Positions 408 through 21,807 of a stretch of 21,955 nucleotides of DNA are shown in pieces. The notes beneath the pieces were generated by a model, which saw only the letters and a program-made list of their open reading frames with translations, did no database searches and had not been told where the DNA came from. Position numbers and translations under genes: made by a program. Source of the DNA: Candidatus Thorarchaeota archaeon (GTDB lineage: Archaea; Asgardarchaeota; Heimdallarchaeia; Hodarchaeales; Hodarchaeaceae); assembly GCA_048882505.1 (NCBI GenBank), contig JBHLRO010000037.1, positions 1 through 21,955 on the forward strand, written 5' to 3'. Position 1 is the stretch's first letter. Every line of letters begins with the position of its first letter.

Positions 408-569
408 TTCCTTTTAGATGCGTCATACGTCATCGATTGCCCATAGATTCACCAACCTCCCCTCCAACAGCAGATAAAACAGTCTTATGATGGCCTCGAC
501 TTTAATCCCGTCAATGAAATCCTCCGTCAGAGTGAACAGACAAGCATAAATCCAAGAACATAACAGTGA
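408..569 (+). pseudogene. R1 copy 1: decayed relic of the 3' end of a HerA-like ATPase gene
   Basis: Translates FLLDASYVIDCP*IHQPPLQQQIKQSYDGLDFNPVNEILRQSE, versus FPLDVSHEVDWSRIHQHPLQQQIKQSYDGLVFNPVNEMLRRSQ at the end of 12534..14705. Bases 459-533 vs 14625-14699 are 67/75 identical. In-frame TAG at 444-446, no start codon. Confidence 0.9.
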
Positions 570-5448: not shown

Positions 5449-5514
5449 CCTAGAGAAACTCTCCGGATAATGCCATCCGCATGATATCAAAAAAGGATTT
5501 CCTCGTAGTACCGC
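5449..5514. repeat. R2 copy 2: 66-bp dispersed direct repeat
   Basis: CCTAGAGAAACTCTCCGGATAATGCCATCCGCATGATATCAAAAAAGGATTTCCTCGTAGTACCGC. Five mismatches to copy 1, all transitions. Confidence 0.9.
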
Positions 5515-7721: not shown

Positions 7722-8468
7722 TTACAATGAAGTGACAACTATTCTCTCGATTAAACGCCCTTTTAAAGCCAGTGTCGTAATCAAACCTATAGTGCCCATA
7801 ACCAGTGATGTCGCAACTATTGGTCCCGTTGTCACTAGAATTGTCGGGTCGTCAATGATTACCATAAATAACAGTGGAATCCAATATGCAGAAATTATCG
7901 TAGCCACAAATATCAATACGACATACTTCTCTGAAAGGATTAGGGCAATGAGATATATTATATAACTTAGGGACAACGCAAGAACCAAAGCCAATCCTAA
8001 TATCATGATTATAAAAAATGGATCTAAAAAACCTACAAATAAAATCGTTGAAATGTAGTTCACGAATACGAATACGAATACCACGGTTAAAATGATCGGG
8101 GTCATGGCAACAAAACGGTAAAAGACTACCTCCAGTTTGGACATGGGAGCCATAAAGATTTGCTCCGTAACCTTGTCTATCTTTTCCGTTGAAATAAATA
8201 TAATAGAGGTGAAAGCCGCTATTGTAGCATACGTGGATGTAGATGAAATAAGCATTAATTTTACCATTTCGCCTATCAATGATTGTGGCACATCAGGGGT
8301 TAGCGGTGGTGAACCAGGGGGCAAGTCTAAAGATGTCAACAATTCATTAAGTCTACTTAGATATGCCCATTGGAGAAAAACAAACGGGATGATAAAAAGT
8401 AACATCTGAAATCTTATGGTTCTGAATATAAATCCTGTCTCATTGAGGATGAATCTTATTTTGTTCAT
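7722..8468 (-). CDS. ABC-2 type exporter permease (paralog 2)
   Basis: Multi-TM protein with EK.DKVTEQIFMAPMSKLEVVFYRF (ABC-2 permease E...gt.e.l...P.s pattern). Third gene of the ABC operon. Confidence 0.82.
   Translation of the reverse strand: MNKIRFILNETGFIFRTIRFQMLLFIIPFVFLQWAYLSRLNELLTSLDLPPGSPPLTPDVPQSLIGEMVKLMLISSTSTYATIAAFTSIIFISTEKIDKVTEQIFMAPMSKLEVVFYRFVAMTPIILTVVFVFVFVNYISTILFVGFLDPFFIIMILGLALVLALSLSYIIYLIALILSEKYVVLIFVATIISAYWIPLLFMVIIDDPTILVTTGPIVATSLVMGTIGLITTLALKGRLIERIVVTSL
8032..8178. repeat. 147-bp tract identical to 8840-8986 inside the paralogous permease
   Basis: Base-by-base identity over 147 nt (offset 808), while the flanking parts of the two genes are clearly diverged. 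Confidence 0.9.
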
Positions 8469-8529: not shown

Positions 8530-9216
8530 TTATACCGAAGTTACTACTATCCTTTCCACAAGACCTTTTTTTAGAGCTAATGTTGTAATAAACCCTATTA
8601 TACCTAGCAAGATCGATGTGGCAATTATTGGGGCCAGAATCATTTGCAGTGTTACTGGTTCTGTTGCTTCCATAAACATCGATGGCAATAAAAAGAAAAT
8701 CATGATTGCGAAGGTAAACATAAATGAAAGATACTTCTGAGAAAGAATTAACGAGGCATAATATGTCAAATAATTTAGCGGCAGCGCAAGTATCAAAGCC
8801 ATTCCTAATATCGAAACCACAAAAAATGGATCCAAAAATCCTACAAATAAAATCGTTGAAATGTAGTTCACGAATACGAATACGAATACCACGGTTAAAA
8901 TGATCGGGGTCATGGCAACAAAACGGTAAAAGACTACCTCCAGTTTGGACATGGGAGCCATAAAGATTTGCTCCGTAACCTTGTCTGCCTTTTCCATTCC
9001 AAGTATTATTGTTGAAGAGGAGGCCGCCATCATGGCATATACGGGGATATACCCGATAAATACTGGCTCTAACTCCGAAGATGAGGGGATTCGAGCAAAC
9101 AAGATTAGATAAGTCACTTGCACTAAAACTAGCAATATGATTAAAAAACTCGTCTGTCCTCTTATTGTTTTGAAGATGAATCTGGATTCATTGAGAATGA
9201 ACCTTATTTTTTGCAT
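8530..9216 (-). CDS. ABC-2 type exporter permease (paralog 1)
   Basis: Same motif as 7722..8468. N-termini are homologous (MQKIRFILNESRFIFKTIR vs MNKIRFILNETGFIFRTIR). Starts 6 nt after the ATPase stop. Confidence 0.82.
   Translation of the reverse strand: MQKIRFILNESRFIFKTIRGQTSFLIILLVLVQVTYLILFARIPSSSELEPVFIGYIPVYAMMAASSSTIILGMEKADKVTEQIFMAPMSKLEVVFYRFVAMTPIILTVVFVFVFVNYISTILFVGFLDPFFVVSILGMALILALPLNYLTYYASLILSQKYLSFMFTFAIMIFFLLPSMFMEATEPVTLQMILAPIIATSILLGIIGFITTLALKKGLVERIVVTSV
8840..8986. repeat. 147-bp tract identical to 8032-8178
   Basis: See 8032-8178. Includes a (CGAATA)3 microsatellite encoding VFVFVF. Confidence 0.9.
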
Positions 9217-12335: not shown

Positions 12336-12533
12336 AATGTATTCCAAAAACGAAACACCCTATTAAGACGATTTCTTCCTGATATATTGATCGTGCAGTT
12401 TATTGGGCATTCGATCTTCTCATGATCAATAATTAGAAATTCTTTCGCTCTTTTCATGAGCTAATAAGTGAGACCTCCGGTTACCTAGCGATGAGTGTTC
12501 AGATAACATTCCTCCTTCCTGGAGATTTCAGAA

Positions 12534-14705
12534 ATGGTGAATAACTGGTTATCAACGGTTCCTGTGTTCCACTTTAAACATATTCCAAGTGAAGTGAACA
12601 AAGATAGTGTTAAGGTCTTTAAAAATACTAAACACCTCTTTTCCCTCGAGTATGAAATTTACGCGCCCAACACCGTCCATATCAACTTGATTCCGTTTTC
12701 CTCAGGACGATTTCGGAAACCAAAACTCGAACAGGGGCTCGCCATCACCCAACTCTTTGCTTCTGAAATGGGATTACACCAGGATTTTCATCTCATCCAA
12801 GATTGGCGCATCCAGGTGGTATTCCCGTTCTTACAGCGTCGCCTTCAGATCGAGAAGAACGGCATAGAGTTCTACTGTGGTGGAATCTATGGCAAAGAGG
12901 GTACAAAAGATCGTGTTTTCACCACTTCTTCGGGATTCACAGATAGTCTCCTTGAAATTTTGACCGATTCCCCTCACTTTGCGCTCCTTCAAATGCTGTT
13001 TAAAGCCGTCAAAGTTCCCAAAGAATTTCAGACGGAAGGGGAACAAGATAAACGTATCCCCCAGGTTCGTTTTGACATTCAAGCCGGAACTGTCAGTAAA
13101 CGGTACGGGGCCCCCCATATTAATGTCATGGAAGAGGCAGGATGTTTTGAATTTTCTCCCCGGATTCTTCTGGCCGAATCTTCCAAAGAACGATTGAAGG
13201 AGAAGTTGAATCGCGTGGCAGCGGTCTTTCAGACCTATGGATTCAAAGTAAAGGAAATCCCCACCTTTTTCCACCGCTTTGCTCGCTTTAAGGGCCAGTG
13301 CGCCTCTCGAAAAATGCTCTCCCCCATTCTTTTGGATGGCCATTCTCTGATGAACCTCATTGTTCCCCCTCAGCGGCAATATACGCACGATGGCTATTCA
13401 TTGGTTCCCAACAAAACCCACTACTCCTTGTCCGCTAATGTTTCGCCTCCTACCTCGCAACACACCATCAATTTTGGCATTCCAATCTTAAGTGGTAAAA
13501 CCAATCCTACGCCGCTCTTTGTCGATGGAAAAGACCTATGTCGTCATATGGCTGTGTTTGGGATGACAGGGGAAGGAAAAAGCCGATTTGTGTATGGTCT
13601 GCTCAAGGAGTTTTTCTTGAAAGGAGTCAAGTTTATCATTTTTGATCCAAAAGGCGAATATCTCCGTCCTGTCCAGAGCTTCTGTTCTAATGTCCTATAT
13701 CTAAAGCCAGGATCCATTGAGTTCCCCTGGGGAGTCAATATCTTTCAGGTTTCCAAAGATGAGCGTGGAGAAGATCTTATCCCTCTGGAAGATCATGTTC
13801 AATTCGTTGTCTCTGTTTTTGAGAACATCCTGGATGATTCCGATGGGGTGTCCCCGCAGATGCGGCGGATGCTTCACCTGGCCATCCTACGGACGATTCA
13901 AGATCGAGGAGACTTTCGAACCCTACTTGATTATCTGGACGAACCGACTGTCCTGGGATTGAAAGGGGCTTATATTGAAAATACGGCTGCAGGTTTACTG
14001 AATCGGATCGAAAAACTCTTTTTCGGTAATACCGGACGCTCCTTTTCGGTGGCGGAGACCACTTTCGAGATCGCAGAACTCCTGAATCGCAATGTTATCA
14101 TTGACCTATCTGCGTTTGAAAGCATGGAAGATCAACGTGGACGGAATCTGTTTCTTGAAGTGATCTTGCACTACCTCTACTACTTCCTCCGTCGATTTCG
14201 TGAACCGATCAAAGAAGAATCGCTACCTCAGAATACTTTGATCTTCGACGAGGTACAAAAGCTCCTTCCCACCCCGAAACGCTGGAGCCGTCAACCCGAA
14301 TCCATGATTGGCAAAGGGCCCTGGACATTGCGAGCATACGATATTTCTATGATTTTCATTGGCACGGACCCTGTAGTAGATCAACCTATGTTGTCCAATA
14401 CAGGCATTACCACCATCTTCTACACCAATTACAATCCCCAAGTGGTATCTAATATGTTGGGATTATCTTATCATGATTATGACCAGATGCGCCGTCTTCT
14501 CAAGGCTAAAAATGAAGACCGTCGGTGTATCATTTCCGTCAATGGCCAGTCGTCCTTACTCAAAACGAATGAATTCCCCTTGGATGTCTCCCACGAGGTA
14601 GATTGGTCTCGGATACATCAACATCCCCTCCAACAGCAAATAAAACAGTCATATGATGGCCTTGTCTTTAATCCCGTCAATGAAATGCTCCGTAGAAGTC
14701 AATAA
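12534..14705 (+). CDS. HerA/FtsK-superfamily ATPase (DUF87-type) with an uncharacterised N-terminal region of about 300 aa
   Basis: RHMAVFGMTGEGKS (Walker A), FIIFDPKGEY (HerA/VirB4 motif), NVIIDLS, LIFDEVQ (Walker B), LRAYDISMIFIGTD (Arg-finger region). Confidence 0.88.
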   Translation: MVNNWLSTVPVFHFKHIPSEVNKDSVKVFKNTKHLFSLEYEIYAPNTVHINLIPFSSGRFRKPKLEQGLAITQLFASEMGLHQDFHLIQDWRIQVVFPFLQRRLQIEKNGIEFYCGGIYGKEGTKDRVFTTSSGFTDSLLEILTDSPHFALLQMLFKAVKVPKEFQTEGEQDKRIPQVRFDIQAGTVSKRYGAPHINVMEEAGCFEFSPRILLAESSKERLKEKLNRVAAVFQTYGFKVKEIPTFFHRFARFKGQCASRKMLSPILLDGHSLMNLIVPPQRQYTHDGYSLVPNKTHYSLSANVSPPTSQHTINFGIPILSGKTNPTPLFVDGKDLCRHMAVFGMTGEGKSRFVYGLLKEFFLKGVKFIIFDPKGEYLRPVQSFCSNVLYLKPGSIEFPWGVNIFQVSKDERGEDLIPLEDHVQFVVSVFENILDDSDGVSPQMRRMLHLAILRTIQDRGDFRTLLDYLDEPTVLGLKGAYIENTAAGLLNRIEKLFFGNTGRSFSVAETTFEIAELLNRNVIIDLSAFESMEDQRGRNLFLEVILHYLYYFLRRFREPIKEESLPQNTLIFDEVQKLLPTPKRWSRQPESMIGKGPWTLRAYDISMIFIGTDPVVDQPMLSNTGITTIFYTNYNPQVVSNMLGLSYHDYDQMRRLLKAKNEDRRCIISVNGQSSLLKTNEFPLDVSHEVDWSRIHQHPLQQQIKQSYDGLVFNPVNEMLRRSQ

Positions 14706-14735
14706 GAGCGTACAGCTCCGAGTTCTCGTGGCTGA
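14574..14735 (+). repeat. R1 copy 2: 3' end of the intact ATPase gene plus 30 nt beyond its stop
   Basis: Core TTTAATCCCGTCAATGAAAT at 14667-14686, aligned TGA at 14733-14735. Confidence 0.88.
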
Positions 14736-14886
14736 ACCAGGATATAAACAGTGGATTGCTTTTAGTTCTTTTTTTAGGAAACACAGCCCTTTCGGTGGTC
14801 AACTTTTTAAACGAGCTTCTCTCCCCTTGAGCCAAGCTCCTGAAATCTCCTAGTCAACTCACAGAAAGTGACGGGGTATCCGTAGA

Positions 14887-16530
14887 ATGATCGTTAACGT
14901 CATTAAAGACCTGTTTGAGCATGGACAATTCCAGACCATCCACGATCGGCTCGCTCAACCAGACATCCAAACCAAAATCGCTGCGCTCAGCGAACCTGAC
15001 CAAATGGAACTCAGTTATTACCACAGCAATACCCTGATAACGTTGGGGGATTCCAAACATGGACTTCATGTGGCCACCGCCGCCCACACAATCCTTCAGG
15101 CAACAGACAAGAAGTCTCCGTTGCTTCTAGCATCATTGAGCTCTCAAATTCGTGCTTTGGAAAGCTTAGGGGAGATCGACCAAGCCCTGAAACTCCTCAA
15201 ACAGGGGGACCTGCTCTTAAAGGCGCTAACCATGGAAGATCGAGCGCCCCCCTCTGTATGGATTCCCGTCTTCAATCTAATCAAGGGGTCGTTTTGGGCA
15301 GATAATAACCAAAATCTCGCGTTAGACTCCCTTTCCCAGGCCCTAACTAGCTTTGAGAGCCTGGATACCCCGTCCCACCTGGCTGCTACTTTAGTGGAAA
15401 TAGGCTATGCCAATTACCACAAAGGGGAATATGATACTACGGTAGAATACTGCCAACGGGCGCTCGCTATATACGAAAAGTTAAAACACAACCGAGGGAT
15501 TGCAAGCGCATTTCTCATCATGGGGCTTGTCTATGACCGGAAGGGCGAAAGGGACACCATGGCCGAGTACTATCAACGCAGTTTAACGTTCGCTGAGGCC
15601 AGTGGCCTTTCACGCTGGATTGCCGTGACGTTAACGTATGTTGGGGTGGTCTATGTTGAAAAATCCGAGTATGATACCGCTTTAGGGTACTTACGACGAT
15701 CTTTATCCCTCGCGGAATCCCTAGATGACCAGGCGCGCATTGCTGATACCTCTGATATTATTGGTTGGGCGTATTATAAGAAAGGGGAGTTAGAGAAGGC
15801 CGACGAATATTGTCGAAAAAGCCTCCTTATTGCGAACCTTCTAGAGAACGCCGTGTTGCAGAGAAGAGGCTTAGTTCGTCTTATTCAGCTAGCTTTATCC
15901 CGCCAGGATCTCGTTCAAGCCCAAACATACCTGACTACCCTACAAAACCTAGCGACCAGGTCATCTAGCGAGGATATCCACTTCCGAAGCCGTCTAATGG
16001 AAGCGATGGTCTCCAAGGCCAGTCCACAGCTGACCGACAAAGTTCAAGCTCTAACCGTTCTAAAGCAACTGGTAACGGAGGAGCATTTTAGAAAACGATG
16101 GGATTTGGCAATGCAGTCCTTACTCCATCTGTGTGATCTTTTGATCTTTGAAGCACGAGCAACTGGGGAAGAAGAGGCCTGGGAAAAAGCGAAAACGTTT
16201 CTTGACCAGTTCTCCAACCGTGCCCAAAACAAAAAGGACTCTGAGTTTATGACAGAAGGCTTAGTGTTGCAAGCCAAATTTGCTCAGATTGACGGAGAGC
16301 TGCAACAAGCCCAAACCCACCTTAGTGAAGCCAAAGCGCTCGCCATGGGTCTGGATCAGCCCTTAATCGTAGCCCGGGTAGAAGCAGCACAAACACAATT
16401 GGCTACAGACTTCGAAAAATCGGCCGACTTAATCCGCCGGAACGCGCCCCTACAGGAACGGTTAATGGAGGCGCGCCTAGAAGAATATCTGCAGAGCGCA
16501 ATTCGTCAGGTAAAACACCATCACAGATAA
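14887..16530 (+). CDS. Tetratricopeptide repeat protein (MalT/TPR_12-like helical solenoid)
   Basis: Successive 40-aa-type repeats (e.g. LVEIGYANYHKGEYDTTVEYCQRALAIYEKL; FLIMGLVYDRKGERDTMAEYYQRSLTFAEAS; LTYVGVVYVEKSEYDTALGYLRRSLSLAESL). No catalytic domain recognised. Confidence 0.88.
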   Translation: MIVNVIKDLFEHGQFQTIHDRLAQPDIQTKIAALSEPDQMELSYYHSNTLITLGDSKHGLHVATAAHTILQATDKKSPLLLASLSSQIRALESLGEIDQALKLLKQGDLLLKALTMEDRAPPSVWIPVFNLIKGSFWADNNQNLALDSLSQALTSFESLDTPSHLAATLVEIGYANYHKGEYDTTVEYCQRALAIYEKLKHNRGIASAFLIMGLVYDRKGERDTMAEYYQRSLTFAEASGLSRWIAVTLTYVGVVYVEKSEYDTALGYLRRSLSLAESLDDQARIADTSDIIGWAYYKKGELEKADEYCRKSLLIANLLENAVLQRRGLVRLIQLALSRQDLVQAQTYLTTLQNLATRSSSEDIHFRSRLMEAMVSKASPQLTDKVQALTVLKQLVTEEHFRKRWDLAMQSLLHLCDLLIFEARATGEEEAWEKAKTFLDQFSNRAQNKKDSEFMTEGLVLQAKFAQIDGELQQAQTHLSEAKALAMGLDQPLIVARVEAAQTQLATDFEKSADLIRRNAPLQERLMEARLEEYLQSAIRQVKHHHR

Positions 16531-16606
16531 GACGAATTGACACTGACAGGCTGAGAGCACGCATCTAATTGATTCTTTAAATATGGAAAGACGTATGGAG
16601 CCCTGA

Positions 16607-16699
16607 AAAGAATCCTATAAAGCCCGCGTCTTCAACCCCGTCAATAAAATCTTATGACGGAGTCAACAGGAGCACACACCTCAGAAAAAACCGTATTGA
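16607..16699 (+). pseudogene. R1 copy 3: decayed HerA-like 3'-end relic
   Basis: Reads KESYKARVFNPVNKIL*RSQQEHTPQKKPY*. Core TTCAACCCCGTCAATAAAAT at 16631-16650. Bases 16628-16672 vs 18409-18453 are 38/45 identical. TGA at 16697-16699. Confidence 0.85.
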
Positions 16700-16840
16700 C
16701 ATAAATTGGGAAAACAGTTCTTCTAAGGTGCATATGTTGAAGGACTAATGCCATATTTCAATATAATAAACATTATTAATCCTTTAATTTTCTTCATTAC
16801 AATTCATTGAAAATCATTCGAAACAGAGGAATGTGAAAAT

Positions 16841-17491
16841 TTGTCGGGAAAAGCAATATTTGCAACTGTATTAATTTCTGTGATCGCTACAACCTCAATT
16901 GGTGTGTTTTTAATTCCTATTACTACTCCAATAATATCTAACATGTTTCCTGATTTGATACCACGATCTGGTGAAAATGCTACTACTGTCATCCAAAATA
17001 ATACCACCGTTAATATCCTAAATGATACAAATCTCATTCTCCAATCCCGCTACCTTGAAACGAGTTCAAAAGCTCAAATCTTTGATGAAAACACAACTTA
17101 TCAACCTATTCCAAACACAAATTTGTCAATAACTATCCAAGACAATTCAAAAATTTCAGTAGAATTCTCTAGCATCGTTATCCTTGGACGAGGACCTGGA
17201 CAAGTTGGATTTATGGCCATGTACATCCAGATTCGAGTGGGAAGCTTCAGTAATCGAACCTTGCAACCAGGCTACTTTTTCGCAACGGCAGCTGCTTCAT
17301 CGGAATCTTATTTCAATTACGTTCATGTCTATTTTGAAACGTCACCCTTATCCGCGGGAACATATGATATCACCACTCATTATAAGACGGGTAGCCCAGT
17401 AGCTGGGTCTAACATATATGAACTATCCGAAGGAGGAGGATCGCTGACCTTTCCACGCACCCTCCTCGTTCAAGAGATGAAAACCACCTAA
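16841..17491 (+). CDS. Membrane-anchored surface protein with beta-rich (jelly-roll-like) ectodomain
   Basis: TTG start after GAGGA, N-terminal TM, many N-x-S/T sequons (NAT, NNT, NDT, NTT, NLS, NRT), alternating beta-strand pattern. Confidence 0.72.
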   Translation: MSGKAIFATVLISVIATTSIGVFLIPITTPIISNMFPDLIPRSGENATTVIQNNTTVNILNDTNLILQSRYLETSSKAQIFDENTTYQPIPNTNLSITIQDNSKISVEFSSIVILGRGPGQVGFMAMYIQIRVGSFSNRTLQPGYFFATAAASSESYFNYVHVYFETSPLSAGTYDITTHYKTGSPVAGSNIYELSEGGGSLTFPRTLLVQEMKTT

Positions 17492-17590
17492 AGGTGCTCG
17501 ATATGGGAGATGGCTGAATTTCTTAAAGGAAATCAAGAATCCCCTCCATTGGCAATTAATACAATCCTCTGATGCCTTCCCTTTCTCACC

Positions 17591-17995
17591 TTATCCAATG
17601 ACCTGAAATTCAGCCTGTGTAAAATGGGAATCATAAGTAAACGCCGCGCCTATTTCCAATGATTGCATTACCACGAAACTTGTACAATCTGTGAAGCTAT
17701 AGGTCTTATCTTGACTCTCTTTAAACCATTCCCATGATTTTTTTTCTAATGCTTCCAATATCCAAATTATTCTGATATTGGATGAATTCCGGATCGCTTC
17801 ACCGATTTCGATAGCCTCTTCATGTGATACCCGCCTCCTAAGAAGAGTATAAAGCTCATCCAGAATATAGTTCGTGGTTACCATTTTTCCATACTTCCCG
17901 CCCCTAATTTCAGCTTCTACTCGGACTGCTGAAGAATGATTCACGTCATTTTTCACCTTAGAGGCAAAAAAAGCTCCTGTATCTATGAAAATCAA
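17591..17995 (-). CDS. vapC: PIN-domain toxin of a type II TA system
   Basis: IFIDTGAF, TTNYILDE, SFTDCTSF, FTYDSHF: the four conserved acidic PIN motifs. AAGGTGAT RBS with TTG start. Confidence 0.92.
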   Translation of the reverse strand: MIFIDTGAFFASKVKNDVNHSSAVRVEAEIRGGKYGKMVTTNYILDELYTLLRRRVSHEEAIEIGEAIRNSSNIRIIWILEALEKKSWEWFKESQDKTYSFTDCTSFVVMQSLEIGAAFTYDSHFTQAEFQVIG

Positions 17996-18031
17996 TTCAT
18001 CACCTTTGAGAATACCAATAAAAGAAATTAT

Positions 18032-18274
18032 TCATTCTCTTTTATAAATAATTTGATCTACTTCTTCTGATGCCTTCTCTTCCTTGAACTTCGACGTTAC
18101 CGCTAGATTAAAGTACGGATCGTTTTCGTCAATCGCGTCGCTCTTGAGTAGATTCAAAATTGCTCGTCTAACTGCTTCTTTGATTGAGATATCATGTTGA
18201 GTCGCATAATCAACCAGAATTGCATGCTCTTCCGGGGATAGAGTGGTTTGAACGACTTTTTCTTTCGACTTCAT
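18032..18274 (-). CDS. vapB: CopG/ribbon-helix-helix antitoxin
   Basis: VVQTTLSPEEHAILVDYATQHDISIKEAVRRAI (RHH pattern) with an acidic C-terminus, directly upstream of the PIN gene. Confidence 0.85.
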   Translation of the reverse strand: MKSKEKVVQTTLSPEEHAILVDYATQHDISIKEAVRRAILNLLKSDAIDENDPYFNLAVTSKFKEEKASEEVDQIIYKRE

Positions 18275-18275
18275 C

Positions 18276-18318
18276 TCACATCTCTCATATCGAATGCAAG
18301 ATGTGATTGATATAAACT
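18276..18318 (-). promoter_or_regulatory. vapBC promoter with inverted-repeat operator
   Basis: TCACATCT (18276-18283), N15, AGATGTGA (18299-18306), lying between a TTTATATC TATA-like box (about 18311-18318, - strand) and the vapB start. Confidence 0.55.
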
Positions 18319-18396
18319 TTCTGGTAGATCATTGATTTCTGCCGGAGAGCGTGTCATTTGCCATGAACTTACCCGCGTTTTCCCAACAGAAAGTTC

Positions 18397-18480
18397 TACG
18401 ATAGCCTTGTCTTCAATCCCGTCAATAAAATGTTACGCTGGAGCCAACATGAGAGTACAACTCCAAGAAACTCACGTTGA
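18397..18480 (+). pseudogene. R1 copy 4: decayed HerA-like 3'-end relic
   Basis: Reads YDSLVFNPVNKMLRWSQHESTTPRNSR*. Core TTCAATCCCGTCAATAAAAT at 18412-18431. TGA at 18478-18480. A partly deleted CAACAG segment lies upstream (about 18382-18396). Confidence 0.85.
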
Positions 18481-18556
18481 ATTAGGAAATTTTAGAGTTT
18501 AATTGAAATACATTAAACATCCCGTGCAACAAAGAAGAGACACGTCCCAGGCCGCC

Positions 18557-18826
18557 TCAAAAACCGAACAGAGAGGTGAAACCAAAAACGAACATCACTA
18601 TCATCATGAAAGCCATGAATATTATGAAAACAATGAACATTAACATCATCGGAGGAAAACTCCGCACTCTCCTTGGCCTCCATTGCTGAGCTGGAATTGG
18701 TGTTTGAGCGGACGGGGGTTGATACGTATATTGAGCTTTAGGCTCATCAGAAAACTGAGCCGCTCCACAATTGGGGCAGAACTTCGCATTACCTATTTCT
18801 TCACCGCAATTACTACAAAATGCCAT
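18557..18826 (-). CDS. Zinc-ribbon domain membrane protein
   Basis: FCSNCGEEIGNAKFCPNCGAAQ zinc ribbon, Pro/Gln-rich linker, C-terminal Met/Phe-rich TM segment. Confidence 0.82.
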   Translation of the reverse strand: MAFCSNCGEEIGNAKFCPNCGAAQFSDEPKAQYTYQPPSAQTPIPAQQWRPRRVRSFPPMMLMFIVFIIFMAFMMIVMFVFGFTSLFGF

Positions 18827-19033
18827 GGTGATTCCTTACCGTCAATATTCGGTACGTTCTTCCATTCCACCAAATTGGGGTTTATAAGAAAATTCTTGCG
18901 TTTATCGTAAAAACACATCTTCTGGAGATTTCGGTCAATAAATTAGAATCTTAATACCCCATTTGGTCTTTTGATCTATCAAACTGGAAATTAGTTTTTA
19001 GATTTCTGCCTTTTATGCCTAGCTTACGGATAT

Positions 19034-19087
19034 AAAAGTAAAAAAGGATTCTAGTTGAATTTTCTCAAGACCACTCAATTCACCTAG
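19034..19087 (-). terminator. Putative hairpin plus U-tract terminator downstream of 19132..21807
   Basis: On the - strand: CTAGGTGAATT, 15-nt loop, AATTCAACTAG (10/11 bp stem, 19051-19087), followed by AATCCTTTTTTACTTTT. Confidence 0.45.
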
Positions 19088-19131
19088 GTAAATTAAACAA
19101 TGAAAGACAGAATAACAACATTATTTCAAGG

Positions 19132-21807
19132 TTAACTTTTTCTACTTTTTATCGTTATTGGAATGACAAACAACGCAAAAATACAAGCTAGCAATCCTAA
19201 ACTAGTGGTAGTTGATTTTGAGGTAATTTCAGTGGTGGTTGATTCTGAGGAAGGTTCAGTGGTGGTTGATTCTGAGGAAGGTTTTTCTATATAGACTCCC
19301 CCACTGGTATAATAGTGGATTAATTGATATGAAGGTCCATCATTTTGTTGAAAGTTCTGAATAAAAAGTCCAAACGAATACTTTTTTTCGTTCCATTCAT
19401 CTTCCTCGGAAATACCTGCGATAGCTCCTTGATATTTCATACTGGATCCAGCTATAACCTGATGACCTTTACCAAAACCACCACCAAAACTCACATCTAA
19501 CCCAAAACCTGAAACTTCAACTCCTGCTGAAACAGTAAAATCCCAAGTATGTTCCTCAGTCGTCACTTTTTCTTCTGTCCTTGTATATGTTAAAGTACTT
19601 CCAGTAAAGATGCCCTCACCCATTATAACTGAGATAGGAGGTTCTACTATCCTCTCAACAGATGGTCCAAGCTCTTTTACCTCCGTTAATGAAGGATAAG
19701 TTGTGGGTTGACCTATTGTATGCGTAAATGTTTCAGAACCAATTTTACTAGTCAATGTGGAATTTATATTATTATAATAGGTGACTGAAGTGCAATAAAC
19801 ATTTATATCAAGAGGGACATCAATTGAGAGATTATATCCTACCATTGAAGGATCGGGGTGTGTTAGTATTCTGTAAACATAAGATTCATAATCAATTGCA
19901 TCATAAATAACGTAATTATTGTCATAACCAGAGACATATTGGACTCCTATTGTTTCTGTTTCTGTAGTTGTTTCAGTATGTAAAAGCTGATAATTAAATT
20001 CGAATGCCGAATGAACTTTAACCCCTAAACCGAATAATTGACAATCTAAACCATATGAAATCTTTAGACCCGCATGGATATTGAATTGCTCTGAATACCC
20101 CGAACCTGTTGAGGTATCCGATGAAATCGAAGTATAACTGCAGTTATCATTTATTCCTTGATATGCTGGAGGGGCAGCTAAAACAAAGAGAGGTCTATTA
20201 GGCATTAAACTGGGAAAATGCACTCCTGAATACTCTATCATAATCCCATCCCCATCAAAATCACCAATAACAGGCATTCCTTCTGATTCAGGACTGCGTA
20301 TTACTGCCATGGTTCTGGTTATTGGATCATATTTGACTATCTTTGTATCTCGATCTTGAACTTCGGGAATAACGTGTCCAAACAAATAATTACCATAATA
20401 TTGAACAGAGGAGAATATAATTTCTGGAATACTATCAAGATCTACATCACAGAAATCGAACGATTTCGCAGCCCAATTACAATCAGTACCAGTAAAATGA
20501 CATATTTTTTGAAAATTATGCTTCTGGTCATCAAAAATCATGACAACCCAATTATCTTTCATGTTCATTTCAATCCCAGCAACGATGGTTTCACTTAAAC
20601 CATCTCCATCAATATCTGCTGCTCCAATAGAAGGATACCAGAGGTATTCCACTGGCATAGTTCCACTTGCAGGATATGTTGTTGTTGAACTTCCGTACTT
20701 CCAAATAACTCTTTCCAGGTATTGATGATAAGGTTGATATTCGTCAGGATCCTCATCAAATGGATAACGACAATCCATTAAAACTACATCTTGGACTATA
20801 TCACCATCAAAATCTCCTGTCGCGAGATATTGAGGCATGTTTACCGGATAACCTTGATTTGCTCCAATATCTTCTGGTCCATCGACTTGAACCAGCATAT
20901 TTTCGATTGTGAGCTCCCAATGATAGTATTTTCCAGAAAAACAGATAGCTACAATCTCATTTAGGTTATCATTATCAAAATCTCCAATTTCAATATCTTG
21001 AATAATCTCCGTGTCAATATCTGTAATTGCAAAGGCAATTCCGCCAGGTCCTGTCGGTCTAGCATATTCTGTTGTCCCAGGAATATAAAAAGTTCCATCA
21101 TTTTTGCATGGATCCCAAATTTGGATCCCAGCAGAAGTTTGCAAATGTTCCGCAGAAGTAATGGCGATTTCTAAACCAGGATCAGCGTTAAATTGACCCA
21201 GTTCAATTGTTGCATACTGTGCAATAATATCTAGGGAATAATTGTTGCCGTTTGAATCCTCTTTCACTTCCAATAATTGATTAGTATTATCATAACTATA
21301 AATTCTAACACAACCCTCCTTATCAACTGTGACAAGCTCATCTTTATTGTCCCCATCAACATCTCCACATGCAGTCGATAATATATATTTTCCTGAAAAT
21401 GTGGCTGCAGAAGCTAATAAACTACTATACGGGTCATTAGCAATTGCATTCTCGATCAGATACCCATTCCCACCGGTGTCTGGCTGGTCTGTAGGCATAA
21501 CAAATCCGATTTCATCAATGCCAATTATAGCCATCTTATCGTCACCTAGGGGATGATTCCCATTCGCAACCCCAGGAGTATCAGTAGTAACTTGATTACT
21601 CTCCGTTGTTCGTTCTATTTGTGTTCCATCTGCTTTATAATCCACATGAAGGATACTTAGATCCCTTATCTTATCGTTCAAAACTCCATTATCCATTTCG
21701 TTTTTATTATTCTGATTTGAAGGAACAGAAAGAATAGATACAATCATAAGAAAAGTTATTATGGTAGCTAATAGGAATGTAATTGAATTTGAATATTTAA
21801 CTCTCAT
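19132..21807 (-). CDS. Large cell-surface FG-GAP repeat protein with two Ser/Thr-flanked amphipathic beta-hairpin modules, S/T linker and C-terminal anchor
   Basis: Signal/TM at the N-terminus; FG-GAP motifs (CGDVDGDNKDE, IGDFDNDNLNE, TGDFDGDIVQD, AADIDGDGLSE, CDVDLDSIPE, IGDFDGDG); LAAPP module; SESTTTE linker; LGLLACIFALFVIPITIKSRKS anchor. Confidence 0.88.
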   Translation of the reverse strand: MRVKYSNSITFLLATIITFLMIVSILSVPSNQNNKNEMDNGVLNDKIRDLSILHVDYKADGTQIERTTESNQVTTDTPGVANGNHPLGDDKMAIIGIDEIGFVMPTDQPDTGGNGYLIENAIANDPYSSLLASAATFSGKYILSTACGDVDGDNKDELVTVDKEGCVRIYSYDNTNQLLEVKEDSNGNNYSLDIIAQYATIELGQFNADPGLEIAITSAEHLQTSAGIQIWDPCKNDGTFYIPGTTEYARPTGPGGIAFAITDIDTEIIQDIEIGDFDNDNLNEIVAICFSGKYYHWELTIENMLVQVDGPEDIGANQGYPVNMPQYLATGDFDGDIVQDVVLMDCRYPFDEDPDEYQPYHQYLERVIWKYGSSTTTYPASGTMPVEYLWYPSIGAADIDGDGLSETIVAGIEMNMKDNWVVMIFDDQKHNFQKICHFTGTDCNWAAKSFDFCDVDLDSIPEIIFSSVQYYGNYLFGHVIPEVQDRDTKIVKYDPITRTMAVIRSPESEGMPVIGDFDGDGIMIEYSGVHFPSLMPNRPLFVLAAPPAYQGINDNCSYTSISSDTSTGSGYSEQFNIHAGLKISYGLDCQLFGLGVKVHSAFEFNYQLLHTETTTETETIGVQYVSGYDNNYVIYDAIDYESYVYRILTHPDPSMVGYNLSIDVPLDINVYCTSVTYYNNINSTLTSKIGSETFTHTIGQPTTYPSLTEVKELGPSVERIVEPPISVIMGEGIFTGSTLTYTRTEEKVTTEEHTWDFTVSAGVEVSGFGLDVSFGGGFGKGHQVIAGSSMKYQGAIAGISEEDEWNEKKYSFGLFIQNFQQNDGPSYQLIHYYTSGGVYIEKPSSESTTTEPSSESTTTEITSKSTTTSLGLLACIFALFVIPITIKSRKS
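19203..19283. repeat. 27-bp tandem repeat (2 perfect copies plus 1 degenerate) encoding the PSSESTTTE linker
   Basis: CAGTGGTGGTTGATTCTGAGGAAGGTT at 19230-19256 and 19257-19283, degenerate copy at 19203-19229. Confidence 0.9.

Follow-up and report, generated by a model that had tools for sequence, protein, structure and literature searches.

Background

Arrays of displaced 3' gene ends are known from the rhs, contact-dependent inhibition (CDI) and type VI secretion system (T6SS) effector-immunity loci (Jackson et al. 2009, PMC2935791, to the extent relayed by Kirchberger et al. 2017, PMC5361080). For the displacement of rhs C-termini and the sequential displacement of T6SS effector modules, homology-facilitated illegitimate recombination with later exchange of whole arrays has been proposed (PMC5361080). 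In a second described arrangement, a protein-coding gene accumulates integrative and cis-mobilizable elements in tandem at its 3' end (PMC7563491). Here we describe an array of related layout in a 21,955-bp stretch of DNA (hereafter the window, which is the entire contig C37) from Candidatus Thorarchaeota archaeon, a member of the Hodarchaeales, in which a short repeat, R1, forms the 3' end of an intact P-loop ATPase gene and recurs between the genes around it. The genome, coded G000, is a metagenome-assembled genome (MAG) of 4.3 Mb and 94.5% completeness; an HTH_10 regulator and other genes in it are consistent with an archaeal host. Eukaryotes have no closer known relatives than the Asgard archaea of the Heimdall/Hodarchaeales group, whose genomes are large and rich in genes. 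Apart from a few viruses and integrative elements, little is documented about gene gain in this group (PMC8813620, PMC11529989), and in the literature we searched there was no description of such gene-tail arrays for Asgard archaea.

An earlier, sequence-only reading of the window had seen in the region behind the ATPase an accretion array, in which new units enter at the gene's 3' end and push older units outward. This reading is supported in substance by our comparisons with other genomes and metagenome contigs, foremost with G016, a sister species from another sample whose core genes are 86-100% identical to those of G000 at the amino-acid level. As in the bacterial displacement arrays, truncated copies of the 3' end lie in direct orientation behind an intact anchor gene and are separated from one another by other genes. 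With moderate confidence, we favour an array built by displacement of 3' ends, through recombination anchored on gene-tail homology and without a dedicated integrase.

R1 copies are in-frame 3' ends of the ATPase gene

A repeat search of the window recovered four direct copies of R1 (481-556, 14647-14722, 16611-16686 and 18392-18467) with start-to-start spacings of 14166, 1964 and 1781 bp, the latter two reproducing the values of the sequence-only reading. The other copies are 68-78% identical to copy 2, the one that belongs to the intact gene, and only 9-12 nucleotides are invariant across the family. An nhmmer model made without copy 3 recovered that copy with E=1e-15 against the whole genome, so the resemblance is not due to chance; the remaining copies scored 1e-32 to 1e-35 in the same search.

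Each copy is an in-frame 3'-terminal fragment of the ATPase gene that ends at one aligned ancestral TGA, and the leftover copies between the genes downstream comprise about its last 20 codons (Table 1). The repeats are thus displaced ATPase 3' ends, in support of the accretion reading. Read in the ATPase frame, copy 3 translates as KESYKARVFNPVNKIL and copy 4 as RKFYDSLVFNPVNKMLRWSQHESTTPRNSR, each followed by a stop. The G016 orthologue reads through to the ancestral stop, ending in RRSQREKMTSKNPR, whereas the window gene stops ten codons sooner, at a newer TAA. Every ATPase in this genus-restricted family ends with the motif SY..L.F(N/D)P. The PADLOC and NCBIfam libraries place the window ATPase only loosely among the HerA/VirB4/CedD-type ATPases, and its relatives are found in MAGs named Hodarchaeota, Heimdallarchaeota or Promethearchaeota. 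The relics are closest to the ATPase subtype of the window (66-80% identity, against at most 50% to the alleles of other species), and the variable sites among the R1 copies are distributed over the codon positions as 7/5/11, at most a suggestive bias. Copies 3 and 4 have a left boundary in common with a relic on the metagenome contig L123. DNA folds of both strands gave no hairpin shared among the copies (z-scores -1.2 to +1.8), no Rfam family matches R1, and N-terminal or internal ATPase fragments are absent from the whole window. Elsewhere in G000, contig C6 carries more ATPase relics, including a longer one of 82 amino acids.

Table 1. Coordinates of the R1 copies, the anchor gene, the units between the repeats and the adjoining genes in the window.
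Feature	Position	Strand	Description
R1 copy 1	408-569	+	ATPase aa 681-723 and tail; 43 residues interrupted by one stop; the intact gene lies 12 kb downstream
ATPase, HerA/VirB4/CedD-like, intact	12534-14705	+	P-loop ATPase of 723 aa with DUF87 core; anchor whose 3' end is R1
R1 copy 2	14636-14735	+	Functional ATPase 3' end and 30 nt past the present TAA, to the aligned ancestral TGA
Unit A	14736-16600	+	Sole gene TPR (MalT-like) at 14887-16530; TPR match E 4.5e-22; GC 0.484
R1 copy 3	16601-16699	+	Relic of about 20 codons and tail; in-frame stop; ends at the aligned TGA
216-aa gene	16841-17491	+	No family; hydrophobic N-terminus, many N-x-S/T sites; patchy in the genus
Candidate fifth partial R1 relic	17535-17595	+	About aa 696-714 of the ATPase; overlaps the vapC stop; weak evidence
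vapBC-type pair	17591-18274	-	vapC PIN toxin 17591-17995 (E 7.2e-11); vapB 80-aa antitoxin candidate 18032-18274
R1 copy 4	18381-18480	+	Relic, frame open to the ancestral TGA
Zinc-ribbon membrane protein	18557-18826	-	Beyond the array; not found in G016 by DNA
FG-GAP surface protein, 891 aa	19132-21807	-	Beyond the array; not found in G016 by DNA

Units between the repeats

The genes between the R1 copies are complete and mutually unrelated, none of them spans a repeat, and upstream sequence of about 140-150 nt precedes both the TPR gene and the 216-aa gene, all in agreement with the sequence-only reading. That reading had also noted, from spot counts, a step down in GC content across copy 3. 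The step proved real: GC falls from 0.484 in unit A (99th percentile of 1.5-kb windows; genome GC 0.411) to 0.382 in unit B (12th percentile), and the drop is located at copy 3. Unit B comprises the 216-aa gene and the vapBC-type pair, and in G016 it travels with copy 4.

The vapB candidate lies 36 nt upstream of vapC on the same strand and has a weak DUF6290 match below the cut-off, an arrangement that qualifies the two genes as a VapBC pair. In G016, vapC starts with ATG and overlaps vapB by 4 nt; in the window the only start available to vapC is a TTG that lies 36 nt downstream of vapB, and one extra base is present at 18024 when compared with G016-type sequences. For the 216-aa gene, the hydrophobic N-terminus and N-x-S/T sites on which the earlier label "surface protein" was based are present, and the label itself is a guess from them. 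Apart from a generic TPR-repeat model hit by the TPR protein, the cargo matches none of the defence-system models.

Homology with the sister genome breaks at R1

The G016 ATPase matches window positions 12450-14702 at 90%, with no matching sequence to its left or right. Copy 2 and the G016 orthologue diverge at about 14700-14702, after which the tail of copy 2 is of the copy-4/L123 type. L123 carries an R1 relic with this copy-2-type tail and without the ATPase; it was the only true relic among the 16 contigs returned by a metagenome scan with the R1 core pattern, the others matching the core alone. Unit A has no counterpart in G016, where the best TPR match is 32% identical, and it is without coverage in the G016-like runs. 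G016 contig C124 carries the stretch 16762-18471, unit B together with copy 4, at 94% identity and then enters different genes, the homology ending with the right edge of R1. In other samples, contigs from a G016-like strain likewise cease to match at 16762 and 18468, and a G016-type contig in run X5 extends 1309 nt upstream of unit B. Copy 1 and the block at 458-1584 are 89% identical on a third G016 contig; copy 1 is chimeric, with its left part like the G016 ATPase, its right part like the G016 C136 type, and a switch that sliding identity places within the core. The breaks in homology, then, lie inside R1 or at its edge, which supports the accretion reading.

These comparisons agree in part with the claim that the gene-adjacent unit is the newer one: unit A is foreign in GC content and has no place in G016, which does share unit B, at 94%. 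The absence of the near unit beside the presence of the far one, together with composition and analogy, suggests an order of events for the ATPase locus; what speaks against it is taken up below. The nearest relatives of the unit A TPR gene (58-62% amino-acid and 73% nucleotide identity) stand in other contexts. In a further species, G007, the layout recurs with that species' own allele: the last 22 amino acids of its ATPase are repeated at 91% identity 6.6 kb downstream, and an additional, older relic of 95 amino acids lies 11.7 kb downstream. The idea of a common ancestral neighbour was considered and rejected: the zinc-ribbon gene that follows copy 4 and the one that follows the G007 relic are alike in the zinc-ribbon motif only, and the radical-SAM genes near the G016 and G007 relics are just 23% identical.

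Could the R1 copies be leftovers of tandem ATPase paralogues, with the genes between them old neighbours exposed by deletion? The genus is indeed rich in ATPase paralogues, pseudogenes and N-terminal fragments, and longer relics such as that of 82 amino acids on C6 are known. But N-terminal and internal ATPase pieces are missing from the window, all relics end at one 3' boundary, and copies 3 and 4 begin at one left boundary. Moreover, unit A is atypical in GC content and missing from the sister species, and single-copy core genes (SMC and Hel308) show the same pattern with empty sites, as described below. We regard paralogue decay as very improbable, and the evidence already refutes it largely. 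As an observation in its own right, N-terminal fragments of the ATPase family also occur in tandem (L108, G001 C77, 136-3667; L107, G007 C37), and in G001 three such fragments are followed by a C-terminal relic, which implies that gene starts too can be displaced.

Nor is the array a product of assembly. One contig of the probable source run covers 13677-20000, and contigs of an independent study bridge all three array junctions with 0 differences, which identifies the array as real DNA. Concatenation of strain variants might be suspected in a MAG, and strains do vary in this region; yet the copies are 22-32% diverged with no more than about 12 exact shared bases, too few for k-mer joins, and G016, from another sample, has unit B with copy 4 and orthologous relics behind SMC. 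This explanation has practically no probability left. Among the contigs compared with the window no joint deleting a cassette was seen, though contigs can neither reveal rare variants nor prove absence.

Gene-tail relics across the genome

We probed the genome with the last, first and middle 150 nt of 2331 long open reading frames and counted non-genic local copies. The 3'-end probes gave 18 copies that were direct and downstream, belonging to 13 genes, compared with 0-4 in every other class; the architecture of the ATPase array is thus repeated at 12 other genes of G000. Local short repeats in the genome are almost all direct (92 vs 3 inverted), and repeat length ranges from 45 to about 250 nt across loci. 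The anchors include SMC, TFB, a Hel308-type helicase, two aldehyde dehydrogenases and an MFS transporter. With the pattern at no fewer than 13 unrelated genes (a lower bound), the ATPase loses the role of specific platform that the sequence-only reading had given it. The cargo, which includes a methyltransferase, NosD-type beta-helix proteins, a YdjM-like protein, a glycosyltransferase, NhaA and a LAGLIDADG protein, amounts to one ordinary gene per unit, and its ends have no terminal inverted repeats and no shared motif.

The clearest array of the genome lies behind SMC (G000 C7:771-12366, L126), where at least four direct 84-nt relics (C7 5662, 8106, 9570 and 12267, plus weaker ones) are separated by single-gene cargo. 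This array is polar: its distal cassettes are found in G016 too, at 85-91% identity, and its proximal ones differ. Frame and stop are preserved in the G000 relics, whose variable sites are distributed by codon position as 3/3/13, and one G016 relic (f2) is decayed in one half and identical to the functional end in the other; both observations point to continuing recombination among the repeats. Within about 19 kb downstream of SMC, no relics were found in G009, G015, G007 or G011. Behind TFB (G000 C11:49077-59696) there are three downstream relics of the last 20 or so codons, each of which also carries a conserved stem-loop from the 3' untranslated region. At G000 C31:25260-33843, non-coding direct repeats of 80-160 nt extend over 8.5 kb; no anchor gene was identified for them, and they may be a relic array.

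Two loci have exact empty sites in the sister genome. Behind Hel308, RpiA follows directly in G016, whereas in G000 the two genes are separated by a block of 1.8 kb and a relic of 60 nt. The relic and RpiA of G000 are 90.5% identical to G016; within Hel308, identity is only 60-80% over the functional 3' part of about 850 nt and 85-95% over the 5' part. A divergent 3' part beside a native-type relic indicates that the divergent tail came with the cargo and the native tail was left behind. This fits the footprint of homology-facilitated illegitimate recombination; a preformed cassette entering by two homologous crossovers would look alike. Behind the MFS transporter gene, G016 has DJ-1 directly and G000 has a NosD-type insert of about 2 kb with a flanking 62-nt duplication. 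That new units enter at a gene and older ones move outward is seen directly in the SMC array, and the empty sites at Hel308 and MFS show genuine insertion accompanied by duplication of the 3' end.

Mechanism and alternative explanations

Under the displacement model that we favour, copies 3, 4 and 1 would be former or imported ATPase 3' ends. Foreign or relocated gene blocks would have been joined beside an R1 copy, leaving a relic in place, so that the gene retains a complete tail while the previous tail and everything behind it shift outward. The driver would be ordinary recombination on short gene-tail homology: a homologous crossover would take place in the gene or a relic, and the second end would join illegitimately (homology-facilitated illegitimate recombination) or within another relic. 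Existing relics may then recombine further, producing chimeric copies, gene conversion, stacking of units and exchange between strains.

The sequence-only reading had stated that no integrase is present in the window, and we found none there or in any cassette examined. PF00589 (tyrosine recombinases) has no match in the window and a single, distant one in the genome (C5:211534-212040); serine recombinases and the archaeal phage integrase type (Phage_integr_3) are absent from the genome. The lack of an integrase, the many unrelated targets and the variable crossovers together count against both a site-specific system and the integron analogy. A rival reading takes the units to be remnants of site-specific integrative elements, stacked in tandem, with R1 as the attachment site carried by each element and an integrase lost or acting in trans. 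Direct repeats derived from a gene's 3' end and flanking inserted DNA are the classic footprint of such elements, and the common left boundary of copies 3, 4 and L123 and the company of unit B and copy 4 in G016 would suit them as well. At least 13 unrelated target genes, however, go beyond one site-specific enzyme. Crossovers fall at three different positions in R1, only 9-12 nucleotides are invariant among the copies, and each cargo is one ordinary gene. We consider integrative elements an unlikely source of the array.

Several observations weigh against recombination on gene tails as well. At the ATPase locus, no empty site, no ordered series and no donor was found in the genomes searched, and the nearest TPR relatives share the gene only, with neither the ATPase nor R1 as neighbour. 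Unit B in G016 has no copy-3-like repeat upstream, its left boundary lying 62 nt after copy 3, which makes the order of events at the ATPase locus impossible to reconstruct. As the MAG is 94.5% complete, a recombinase may be present on unassembled DNA. Left boundaries are nearly equal within arrays (SMC f1-f4, the three TFB relics, and R1 copies 3 and 4 with L123); independent illegitimate joins do not predict this, and one founder relic or a defined site is needed. Finally, both copies of the MFS 62-nt repeat are of the recipient's own type, so that the event resembles a long target duplication rather than the import of a tail. Independent illegitimate joins explain neither the nearly equal left boundaries nor the MFS duplication, which leave room for a founder-relic effect or for a duplicating insertion mechanism.

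The latter would be a dedicated, undescribed mechanism of this Hodarchaeales clade that inserts gene-sized DNA behind gene ends and duplicates a defined terminal unit of 60-130 nt, by staggered cuts and fill-in, giving polar arrays at core genes (SMC, TFB, Hel308 and the ATPase). If true, it would be a gene-scale formal analogue of CRISPR repeat duplication, or an integron without integrase. The uniform repeat length within arrays, the nearly exclusive direct orientation and the growth of the SMC array beside the gene would fit such a mechanism, as would the recipient-type MFS copies. On the other hand, no candidate enzyme, terminal motif or structure was found, repeat lengths vary between loci, and the Hel308 event brought 850 nt of a divergent allele, which is a signature of recombination and not of cut-and-fill. 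A dedicated mechanism therefore appears to us quite improbable.

Significance of the relic tails

Relic tails constitute a readable record of single-gene additions, giving an entry point for each block and a relative ordering of events, and in combination with a sister genome they lead to exact empty sites. They should be usable for finding recent acquisitions in other genomes. For annotation, such tails should not be labelled as genes or as regulatory repeats. If the process is truly integrase-free, ordinary recombination at conserved gene ends would, in this lineage, be a notable additive route of gene gain that also operates beside housekeeping genes.

Other observations in the window

The 5' side of the ATPase gene showed features of its own. 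Homology between the G000 and G016 ATPase loci begins just 84 nt before the start codon, which marks the gene's 5' edge as likewise a breakpoint, and window 12435-12559 (promoter region and first codons) has an 80% match to a separate G016 contig, C62. A second direct repeat (2594-2659 and 5449-5514; 66 nt, 92% identical) brackets a 2.8-kb block carrying an FG-GAP/PQQ surface-protein gene. Further copies are found at G000 C6:25410-25507 and at L034 4669-4762, 8692-8781 and 9161-9210; in three places copies lie 0.8-2 kb downstream of ATPase tails, and the match of a contig of a G016-like strain to the window ends exactly at 5514, the edge of this repeat. A 279-nt direct repeat of 87% identity (7953-8231 and 8761-9039) corresponds to two adjacent paralogous ABC-2-type permease genes beside an ABC ATPase gene. 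Finally, at 1015-1498 a contig from an independent sample omits 482 nt and has six other letters instead; a small RING-TPR gene (1108-1485) is lost by this skip, pointing to a deletion or replacement variant in the population.

Comparison with known systems

The sequence-only reading had likened the array to integron cassettes. A polar series of short gene units between recurring sites and a toxin-antitoxin pair in the cargo are indeed common to both, but the analogy fails at every defining feature of integrons. No IntI-type recombinase adjoins the array and there is no attI; the repeats are in-frame ATPase tails without the hairpin of attC, an imperfect palindrome that folds as a single strand; and the cargo stands in both orientations (vapBC on the opposite strand) with upstream regions of its own, whereas integron cassettes are mostly promoterless, point the same way and share one promoter. 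Aloposons (Wu et al. 2022), considered as a further candidate, proved unrelated to the array, being elements that target tRNAs and contain giant genes.

Tandem accretion of integrative and conjugative elements (ICE) and cis-mobilizable elements (CIME), of which ICESt3/CIME at fda in streptococci is an example, comes closer. In those arrays a tyrosine integrase, encoded by at least one element, acts on one fixed att core, and some units carry no recombination gene. Here too, direct repeats of the target gene's 3' end divide successive units; the array departs from ICE/CIME accretion in that no integrase was found, the targets are many and unrelated, and the crossovers vary.

The likeness is greatest with the rhs, CDI and T6SS loci, which share with the Asgard arrays a conserved anchor, direct displaced 3' pieces, newer modules beside the gene and the absence of an integrase. 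The arrangement of newer units near and older units far is clear at SMC; at the ATPase, unit A is absent from and unit B present in G016, on contigs too short for ordering. In the bacterial loci the variable part is a toxin domain inside the reading frame and the cargo an immunity gene, whereas in the ATPase array the repeat is the extreme end of the frame and the variable DNA begins after the stop, with unrelated cargo (a TPR protein, a 216-aa protein and vapBC). The anchors also differ, since in the Asgard archaeon they include the housekeeping genes SMC, TFB and Hel308. Overall, bacterial polymorphic-toxin loci and tandem integrative elements provide known examples of this kind of process, and here it is seen in an Asgard archaeon, at many ordinary genes and in integrase-free form.

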